Of a DNA stretch of 48,138 nucleotides, positions 12,290-13,074 are shown one piece after another (positions within the stretch are counted from its first letter, which is position 1; each line of letters starts with the position of its first letter). The stretch is from Escherichia phage PhiR63_2: sequence record PV340574.1. The stretch is one strand, 5' to 3'. A model generated the notes under the pieces. The model did no database searches and was not told the origin of the DNA. It saw only the letters and a program-made list of their open reading frames with translations. The position numbers and the translations under genes were made by a program.

Positions 12290-12299
12290 CCATCTACAT

Positions 12300-13020
12300 C
12301 ACTGAGCTAATAACAGGCCTGCAGGTAATCGCAGGCCTTTTTATTGTGCACAGAAAACCCCCAGCTAGGCTGGGGGTTCCGGAAAGCTTTCAGCTTTGAG
12401 CCAGTTATTAAAACCCCTTTTGATTTGTTAAAACACCTTGCGGTCTGGCAACTGCAAGTGTCAAACAAGAAATCAAAAGGGGGTCCCAATGGGGAACGAA
12501 AAGAGCTTAGCGCACACCCGATGGAACTGTAAATATCACATAGTATTTGCGCCAAAATACCGAAGACAGGTGTTCTACAGAGAGAAGCGTAGAGCAATAG
12601 GCTGTATTTTGAGAAAGCTGTGTGAGTGGAAAAGTGTACGGATTCTGGAAGCTGAATGCTGTGCAGATCATATCCATATGCTTGTGGAGATCCCGCCCAA
12701 AATGAGCGTATCAGGCTTTATGGGATATCTGAAAGGGAAAAGCAGTCTGATGCCTTACGAGCAGTTTGGTGATTTGAAATTCAAATACAGGAACAGGGAG
12801 TTCTGGTGCAGAGGGTATTACGTCGATACGGTGGGTAAGAACACGGCGAAGATACAGGATTACATAAAGCACCAGCTTGAAGAGGATAAAATGGGAGAGC
12901 AGTTATCGATTCCCTATCCGGGCAGCCCGTTTACGGGCCGTAAGTAACGAAGTTGGATGCAAATGTCAGATCGTGTGCGCCTGTTAGGGCGCGGCTGGTA
13001 AGAGAGCCTTACAGGCGCAT
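12300..13020 (+). mobile_element. IS200-family insertion sequence between ren and ninB (boundaries approximate)
   Basis: Contains a Y1 HUH transposase gene, a left-end hairpin plus T-run (12325-12345) and a second stem-loop (12400-12475) typical of IS200. The ren-ninB spacing is about 710 bp longer than I remember for lambda. Confidence 0.6.
12489..12947 (+). CDS. tnpA: IS200 transposase TnpA (152 aa)
   Basis: MGNEKSLAHTRWNCKYHIVFAPKYRRQVFY... with HIHMLVEIPP (HuH motif); start at the internal Met of the 169-aa ORF. Confidence 0.9.
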   Translation: MGNEKSLAHTRWNCKYHIVFAPKYRRQVFYREKRRAIGCILRKLCEWKSVRILEAECCADHIHMLVEIPPKMSVSGFMGYLKGKSSLMPYEQFGDLKFKYRNREFWCRGYYVDTVGKNTAKIQDYIKHQLEEDKMGEQLSIPYPGSPFTGRK

Positions 13021-13074
13021 TTGAAAAACCTCCGGCTATGCCGGAGGATATTTATTTTGGGGGAGAGGGAAGTC

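Follow-up and report, generated by a model that had tools for sequence, protein, structure and literature searches.

IS200C behind the terminator tR2 of a lambdoid Escherichia prophage, and the adjacency of IS200 copies to the ends of intrinsic terminators

The window analyzed here is a stretch of 48,138 nucleotides (nt) from Escherichia phage PhiR63_2 (sequence record PV340574.1), of which positions 133-47804 are a lambdoid prophage that shares 97.7-99.7% identity with the complete phage PhiR57_1 (PV340572.1). Between the genes ren and ninB of its pR operon, at window 12346-13056, lies an intact insertion sequence (IS), IS200C, which is 711 bp in length and is oriented in the same direction as the operon. 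Its first base (12346) directly follows the last T of the T-tract of the phage terminator tR2. Apart from this one insertion and a swap in the ea region, the window and PhiR57_1 are collinear. The reading proposed here, to which a probability of roughly 0.8 is given, is that a recent and intact IS200C was inserted 3' of the T-tract of tR2 and is near-neutral for the phage. The features of the locus and the evidence for each are as follows.

11999 to 12289, plus strand: ren, the last gene before the insertion, native to the phage (open reading frame (ORF); annotated in PhiR57_1 as 'exclusion protein Ren')
12315 to 12345, plus strand: intrinsic terminator tR2 (terminator scan, fold, and annotation of homologues; intact in the empty site of PhiR57_1)
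12346 to 13056, plus strand: insertion sequence IS200C, 711 bp, GTGCACAG...GGATATTTATT (identical chromosomal copies, empty site, independent copies, and copies at contig ends)
12356 to 12378, plus strand: left-end hairpin, a perfect palindrome, ACCCCCAGC-TAG-GCTGGGGGT (centroid fold of -18.7 kcal/mol; alignment to Rfam STnc490)
12409 to 12499, minus strand: predicted left-end feature, with coordinates transferred from Salmonella IS200 (transcription start at nt 153/154, 90 nt; PMC4513863)
12414 to 12482, plus strand: second left-end structure (fold of -37.2 kcal/mol, z = -5.6; Rfam alignment; role from PMC4513863)
12489 to 12947, plus strand: tnpA, intact, encoding a Y1 HUH transposase of 152 amino acids (aa)
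12971 to 13024, plus strand: interior stem-loop of the right end (12960-13062 folds at -44.8 kcal/mol, z = -5.1)
13029 to 13056, plus strand: right-end hairpin CCTCCGGC-TAT-GCCGGAGG, then ATATTTATT (terminator scan and fold; conserved in all complete copies)
13057, plus strand: an additional T at the right junction (found in E. coli Combat2C1 too, but neither in the empty site nor in the insertion of phage Lambda_ev058)
13075 to 13515, plus strand: ninB, the first gene after the insertion (Pfam NinB, 1.1e-54; 100% identical to PhiR57_1)

The insert is an ordinary IS200C, a member of the IS200 group in the IS200/IS605 family. Copies with 100% identity to window 12345-13056 are found in three E. 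coli chromosomes, where they are annotated as 'IS200/IS605-like element IS200C family transposase', and many further E. coli chromosomes have copies with 99.9% identity; a match to IS200C is present in 3,095 of 5,426 complete E. coli genomes, at about 10,753 places in total. The product of tnpA matches Pfam Y1_Tnp (E = 1.9e-36, 125 bits against a cut-off of 23) and NCBIfam transpos_IS200 (8e-42, 142 bits against a cut-off of 55), and its HUH motif, H61-I-H63, and Tyr125 align to those of the solved IS200/IS605 transposases 2ec2, 2f4f, 2a6m, and 2xm3. tnpA is the sole ORF of the 711-bp element with a protein-family match, and there is no tnpB, other short overlapping ORFs not having been included in the search. 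The two ends, GTGCACAG... and ...ATATTTATT, are not inverted repeats, and subterminal hairpins are found at 12356-12378 and 13029-13047. Judging from these sequence features, the element would transpose by the single-strand 'peel and paste' mode of Y1 HUH transposases, and the TnpA of Salmonella IS200 was reported to be active in E. coli (PMC4513863). The initial annotation, made from the letters alone, had recognized an intact IS200-type element with its transposase gene in an enterobacterial host that carries IS200. Both statements are borne out, the host being E. coli, whose chromosomes hold identical copies.

The left end of the element contains the RNA structures of the IS200 type, a terminator hairpin, a stem in which the Shine-Dalgarno sequence is sequestered, and art200/STnc490, as indicated by Rfam RF01405 and by the folds. 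The left-end hairpins had been noticed from the letters alone, and they are recovered here by an end-to-end match of 12356-12479 to Rfam STnc490 (RF01405; 146 bits against a gathering score of 56), a family that consists of the IS200 left end and 5' untranslated region (5'UTR). The palindrome at 12356-12378 appears to correspond to the bidirectional terminator at nt 12-34 of Salmonella IS200 (PMC4513863), and it is presumably the hairpin that is bound by TnpA. In the window, it is followed by UUCCGG, without a U-tract. In IS200, this hairpin is a bidirectional terminator of impinging transcription, while the 5'UTR stem and art200 repress tnpA (PMC4513863). STnc490/art200 was described as antisense to the 5'UTR (Ellis et al. 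2015, PMC4513863). The RF01405 model matches the tnpA-sense strand and takes in the left-end terminator hairpin, and it seems to represent the sense 5'UTR, not the small RNA (sRNA).

At the other end of the element, the right-end hairpin is terminator-like on both strands in the terminator scan, and the tip of the IS, TTATT, is identical to the target pentanucleotide. No sigma-70-like outward promoter was found in window 11900-13300. Weak Rfam matches to Trp_leader at tR2, to Ysr202 at the right-end hairpin, and to CRISPR-DR57 are below the gathering scores and were dismissed. The match to the Yersinia sRNA Ysr202 (window 13024-13127, minus strand, 32 bits against a gathering score of 315) is partial and is driven by the right-end hairpin; it suggests that Ysr202 overlaps the right end of IS1541 in Yersinia.

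The exact ends were determined by alignment to IS200 copies and to the uninterrupted ren-ninB junction, and they are 12346 and 13056, with an additional T at 13057. The empty site in PhiR57_1 reads ...AGGCCTGCAGGTAATCGCAGGCCTTTTTATT/TGGGGGAGAGGGAAGTCATG, where the slash is the point of insertion, and the window has the same sequence with GTGCACAG...GGATATTTATT and one T at this point. The same empty site, ...GCAGGCCTTTTTATT/TGGGGG (TTTATT/TGGGGG), is found in PhiR57_1 and in many B2 E. coli prophages. The possibility that the ~710 bp are native phage sequence lacking IS200 ends is ruled out by this exact empty site and by the IS200 terminal structures. Since independent copies and repeat-only assembly contigs all end at ...GGATATTTATT, the IS is 711 bp in length and 13057 is an extra T, which may have originated from shifted right-end cleavage within the T-run, from slippage, or from a 1-bp duplication. 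The initial annotation had located the insertion correctly between ren and ninB in the pR operon, as both the gene order and the empty site confirm, and co-oriented with pR. Its start at 12290, in contrast, was 56 bp too early: 12290-12345 contain the native ren stop codon and the tR2 hairpin with its T-tract. ren and tR2 are intact, and the ribosome-binding region of ninB, GGAGAGGGAAG (13060-13070), is likewise untouched by the IS.

The 700 bp on each side of the IS (on the left, 11646-12345) are 100% identical to PhiR57_1, and at least 55 E. coli chromosomes, among them those of UTI89, Nissle 1917, S88, and APEC O1, contain the reconstructed 2-kb empty site at 100% identity. Because the flanks are identical to those of PhiR57_1 and of these chromosomes, all with the empty site, the insertion is considered to be recent and rare.

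The target, tR2, has an 8-bp GC-rich stem, AGGCCTGC/GCAGGCCT, with an 8-nt loop (12315-12338), followed by the T-tract TTTTATT (12339-12345). It is predicted to be a terminator: it scores as terminator-like in the terminator scan, its RNA fold has an energy of -20.4 kcal/mol (z = -3.97), and the homologous 56-bp stretch is annotated as 'tR2 terminator' in AJ413275, AM051322, and AM072972. As the empty site carries the intact tR2 up to the point of insertion, the IS entered exactly after the T-tract. The 5' side of tR2 is AATAAC, and thus the bottom strand of tR2 also presents a hairpin and then TTATT.

The initial annotation had missed that the position of the IS is not arbitrary, since IS200 copies nearly always adjoin the 3' end of an intrinsic terminator. 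One genome per species was scanned with the exact 31-nt left end, which yielded 67 stretches, and copies from E. coli and phages were added. The resulting 62 distinct left flanks of at least 50 nt are from Kluyvera, Citrobacter, Phytobacter, Brenneria, Serratia, Yersinia, Scandinavium, Entomohabitans, and others. By eye, almost every flank is a hairpin and a T-run that extends up to GTGCACAG. A first terminator heuristic under-called these flanks (38/62), because pairing of the A-tract with the T-tract consumed the tail, and it was replaced by a strict criterion scored on controls: a perfect stem, 5 bp or longer and with 3 or more G:C pairs, which ends no more than 10 nt from the junction, and 5 or more T among the final 8 nt. 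The proportions that passed this criterion are as follows.

IS200 left flanks: 60 of 62 (97%)
Positions taken at random from the loci of these flanks: 10 of 5000 (0.2%)
Every TTNTT site of those loci: 405 of 4719 (8.6%)

All 62 flanks end with TT, and 60 end with TTNTT; the last five bases are TTTTT in 39 flanks, TTATT in 14, TTCTT in 4, TTGTT in 3, and other sequences in 2. In 49 of 61 sites, 6-8 nt separate the last G:C pair from the junction, and in the right end of IS200C itself 9 nt separate the hairpin from the tip. Within the 200 nt upstream, the end of a co-oriented ORF is found in 52 of 60 sites, which indicates that the flanking hairpins are gene-end terminators. The idea that the hairpin and the T-run are part of the IS was ruled out: the hairpin sequences all differ from site to site and the empty site holds tR2 natively, and therefore these hairpins are target DNA.

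The terminator tR2 itself was found to be occupied more than once. The ren-tR2-IS junction is present in one of 5,426 complete E. coli genomes (HCP4S3_I4) and in one of 50,697 phage records (Lambda_ev058), while a scan of IMG/VR for the tR2-IS junction revealed no match. In Lambda_ev058 (LR597651.1), whose backbone is locally ~96-99% identical to the window, an IS200 is inserted between ren and ninB at the same left junction (after TTTATT of tR2) and in the same orientation as in the window. This IS differs from the window copy by 10 substitutions (1.4% divergence) and lacks the extra T, and its removal restores the empty site exactly. A chromosomal copy located behind bamC in strain W13-16 differs from the Lambda_ev058 allele by 1 nt, and the window allele is identical to other chromosomal copies. 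The presence of two circulating alleles argues for independent insertions at one site, and the IS200 of Lambda_ev058 is probably a separate insertion event. The insertion in the window is thus already known in kind, as the same site exists in this public phage genome.

E. coli HCP4S3_I4 (NZ_CM149872.1; extracted stretch 2350-3420) has the same left junction with a third IS allele. The right end of its IS is fused to the 3' end of the chromosomal gene ybdG, and an IS3-family element is located upstream of O; the prophage is truncated, for which recombination between copies of IS200 is a possible cause. A further lambdoid phage, in which another gene precedes tR2, is represented by the last 90 nt of the metagenome contig OGYY01003055.1, in which IS200 is at the same tR2 position and the contig ends inside the IS. 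Left-flank matches that start from query position 160 were considered as tR2 junctions and rejected; in the bamC case, at least, the terminator is another one and the similarity is due to chance.

In E. coli Combat2C1 (NZ_CP019243.1; extracted stretch 2500-3270), the phage flanks are 100% identical to the window and the IS differs by 2 nt. This copy is on the opposite strand and on the other side of the tR2 hairpin, after GGCCTGTTATT (bottom strand ...CAGGCCTGTTATT). It represents either an independent event on the bottom strand or local excision followed by re-insertion. Inversion of a block composed of the hairpin and the IS was ruled out, for the loop of tR2 is in its native orientation and the IS alone is flipped and located on the other side.

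Some other variations of these phages were observed during the comparison. In the CFT073 lineage (CFT073, NC_004431.1, 1414832-1418144), an IS3-family element of ~1.3 kb splits the otherwise identical 2-kb P-ren-ninB region, and ren is annotated twice in the same region of SCU-306. The window (2189-2200) is devoid of ~2.5 kb of ea-region genes (EaA/Ea22-like) that are present at 2057-4577 of PhiR57_1, which is the only large difference besides the IS. Downstream of Q, PhiR57_1 (44298-47747 and 17589-18731) and the homologous parts of the window encode the manganese/iron transporter SitABCD and contain an OmpD/NmpC-type porin gene, and both are typical morons of B2 E. coli lambdoid prophages.

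Interruption of lambda early operons by IS elements is classic, as exemplified by r14 and r32 in the pR operon. As for related elements, to our knowledge, no need for a target hairpin has been reported for IS608 or ISDra2. These two elements resemble the window IS in their homologous Y1 HUH TnpA (2a6m and 2xm3), in their subterminal hairpins, and in the absence of inverted repeats, and they insert 3' of a short specific sequence without duplication. IS608 recognizes TTAC and ISDra2 recognizes TTGAT by guide pairing (PMC5027513), whereas the flank of the window IS is TTNTT after a terminator hairpin, and the window IS has no tnpB. IS200 of Salmonella enterica has the same architecture as the window IS, composed of a left-end palindrome, a Shine-Dalgarno-sequestering 5'UTR stem, one 152-aa TnpA, and a right-end hairpin, and its quoted length is 707 bp in comparison with 711 bp for IS200C (PMC4513863). 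Compared with IS200C of E. coli, the window element itself is no different, and only the extra T at the right junction is added. IS1541, which reaches a high copy number in Yersinia, is a close relative with the same left-end sRNA (PMC4513863). A copy from Yersinia pekkanenii in the flank set adjoins a terminator, and IS1541 is located between pheL and pheA, near the attenuator terminator (PMC3082878). ISs that target repetitive extragenic palindromic (REP) elements or hairpins, such as ISPpu9 and IS1397, likewise show a structure-directed choice of extragenic hairpins (PMC8450116, PMC1525189). They are unlike IS200 in that they belong to other families with DDE transposases and their targets are REP elements, not terminators.

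It is likely that the site at tR2 was chosen by the transposition machinery. Target choice, and not only survival, is indicated by the pass rate of 97% compared with 8.6% of TTNTT sites, by the fixed spacing, by the use of the bottom strand of tR2, and by the resemblance of the target to the right end of the IS. The TnpA of IS200 would recognize, on single-stranded DNA, a GC-rich hairpin and then TTNTT 6-8 nt on, as a mimic of its own right end. By analogy with IS608, the GAAAA stretches 5' of the left-end and right-end hairpins are candidate guides, whose possible pairing partners are the T-rich target and the TTATT tip. In its general form, the proposal is that IS200-group transposases are structure-specific integrases for the 3' ends of intrinsic terminators on either strand, a rule previously unstated; it is put forward tentatively, at somewhat less than even odds. 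The statement that IS200 abuts the ends of terminators and that tR2 is a two-sided hot spot was not found in the literature reached, which left out the primary target-site papers on IS200 and IS1541 and the family reviews. An over-representation of terminator-like sequences just upstream of ISs, strongest for IS200/IS605, was reported in 2026 in ISME J and was read as limiting transposase expression (PMC13548323). The dormancy of IS200 (PMC4513863) fits a tnpA behind two terminators, as the copy sits behind a terminator.

The consequence of the insertion for the phage depends on N antitermination, the components of which were identified in the window as follows.

6893 to 7165, minus strand: N ORF, 90 aa, with an arginine-rich motif ...GTAASRRRARRANL..., assigned a putative N function
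7250 to 7300, minus strand: nutL, GGCTCTTTAAA...TGGCTGAAAAGCCA, boxA and a boxB hairpin with a GAAAA loop in boxB TGGCTGAAAAGCCA
9945 to 9990, plus strand: nutR, CGCTCTTTG...TCGCTGAAAAGCGA, boxA and a boxB hairpin with a GAAAA loop in boxB TCGCTGAAAAGCGA

Window 2200-12345, which contains the N region, is 99.4% identical to PhiR57_1, where the gene is annotated as 'antitermination protein N'; no NCBIfam protein-family model matched the N of the window. In lambda, polymerase modified by N reads through terminators in succession, and the polarity that IS insertions cause is relieved. The structures in the path of the polymerase from pR are tR2, the left-end palindrome, and the right-end hairpin plus AUAUUUAUUUU. 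In the terminator scan, the right-end hairpin with its T-run is terminator-like on the plus strand, which is the direction of pR. As the IS is directly behind the N-dependent tR2, it adds to a barrier that N already must pass. Transcripts from pR without N would stop at tR2 whether or not the IS is present. N-modified RNA polymerase has to get past tR2 in any case and should get past the hairpins at both ends of the IS as well, and nin-Q would still be expressed on induction. The cost to the phage would be 712 bp of extra DNA, and the IS would gain a place insulated from transcription and transport with a phage genome that can be packaged. The prophage is ~47.7 kb, compared with 49.5 kb for PhiR57_1, and is within the lambda packaging range. 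The phages of the 'ev' series come from infant viromes, from which they were purified as plaques before amplification on laboratory strains (Mathieu et al., PMC6969025), and by this naming convention (PMC6969025) Lambda_ev058 was isolated as a plaque-forming phage. With N, nutL, and nutR present and Lambda_ev058 isolated as a plaque-former, strong polarity on nin-Q is unlikely in N-antiterminated growth, and the insertion is probably near-neutral for the phage. The initial annotation had warned of polarity on nin-rusA-Q unless N antitermination overrides it. This hedge was right, and the position behind tR2, the presence of N and the nut sites, and the example of Lambda_ev058 favor the override.

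Other explanations have to be weighed against a recent, near-neutral insertion. If the window, Lambda_ev058, and HCP4S3_I4 had one ancestral insertion in common, the IS would be an old inherited feature; the identical left junction and orientation in all three would follow from this, and the divergence of the IS between the window and Lambda_ev058 (1.4%) is similar to that of the backbone (1-4%). This is very improbable, however, since the empty site is found in the closest relatives, namely PhiR57_1 and no fewer than 55 E. coli prophages whose flanks are 100% identical. The window IS is 100% identical to chromosomal copies elsewhere, whereas the IS of Lambda_ev058 is 1 nt from a different chromosomal allele, and the right junctions of the two differ by one T. 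Furthermore, the same backbone appears to have been struck independently on the other strand in Combat2C1, and the trees of the IS and the flanks, as seen so far, are incongruent. It is also improbable, though not to the same degree, that the insertion is strongly polar, with terminators in the IS that block pR transcription before nin-rusA-Q even with N and make the prophage induction-defective or low-yield. IS200 was discovered as the polar insertion hisD984, and its left-end hairpin terminates impinging transcription (PMC4513863). The co-orientation of the IS with pR and the terminator-like right-end hairpin with its T-run on the plus strand are in agreement with this view. However, tR2 ahead of the IS already demands N antitermination, and N, nutL, and nutR appear intact. 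The relief of IS polarity by N belongs to classic lambda genetics. The left-end hairpin is followed by UUCCGG instead of a U-tract, and Lambda_ev058, with IS200 at the same site and in the same orientation, belongs to a set of plaque-purified virome isolates.

The location could also be explained by selection only, in which case IS200 would insert at any T-rich site and only the copies in harmless and shielded spots would persist. Insertions behind terminators disrupt nothing and shield tnpA from read-through, and the enrichment was read in this way in the 2026 ISME J paper (PMC13548323). Insertions that arose de novo in coding regions, namely hisD984 (PMC4513863) and reportedly caf1A, would fit this view as well. 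Selection for harmless copies surely contributes, yet as the whole explanation it is unlikely. Only 8.6% of the TTNTT sites in the same loci are terminator-like, in contrast to 97% of the occupied sites, and harmlessness alone requires no fixed distance, whereas the junction is 6-8 nt past the stem in 49 of 61 sites. The copy in Combat2C1 uses the bottom strand of tR2, where the hairpin and GTTATT terminate no gene, and the target resembles the right end of the IS.

Several points count against the reading favored here, that is, a recent and near-neutral insertion at a chosen target. The association with terminators could partly reflect the survival of harmless insertions. The flank set, obtained with one exact 31-mer, represents one variant of the IS200 left end, and many of its sites are from few genomes. 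A de novo insertion of IS1541 in the coding region of caf1A was reportedly described by Cornelius and colleagues in 2009. A de novo insertion of IS200 inside a gene, hisD984, is cited in PMC4513863, and the preference is not absolute. The viability of Lambda_ev058 is taken from the naming convention and the methods of PMC6969025, the main text of which does not name this phage, and the read-through of the IS hairpins by N-modified polymerase is an expectation based on what is generally known about lambda N.

It is improbable that the prophage was crippled by the IS, which is behind a terminator that requires N, in the dispensable nin region, and in a genome within the lambda packaging size. 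For annotation, the gain is the exact ends of the IS and the recognition that the preceding 56 bp hold tR2. In the sampled flanks, an IS200 copy follows the 3' end of an intrinsic terminator with hardly any exception. This regularity would explain the quietness of IS200, with two terminators upstream of tnpA, and it would predict the sites of new copies and explain the repeated insertions at tR2. It would give a testable target model for IS200, for which the rules of targeting are not as well established as for IS608 or ISDra2. If true, the rule would be sharper than the statistical enrichment reported in 2026 (PMC13548323); with structure-specific integration, tR2 would become a hot spot that is used repeatedly and from both sides, and a safe harbor, from which IS200 would ride viable lambdoid phages between hosts.

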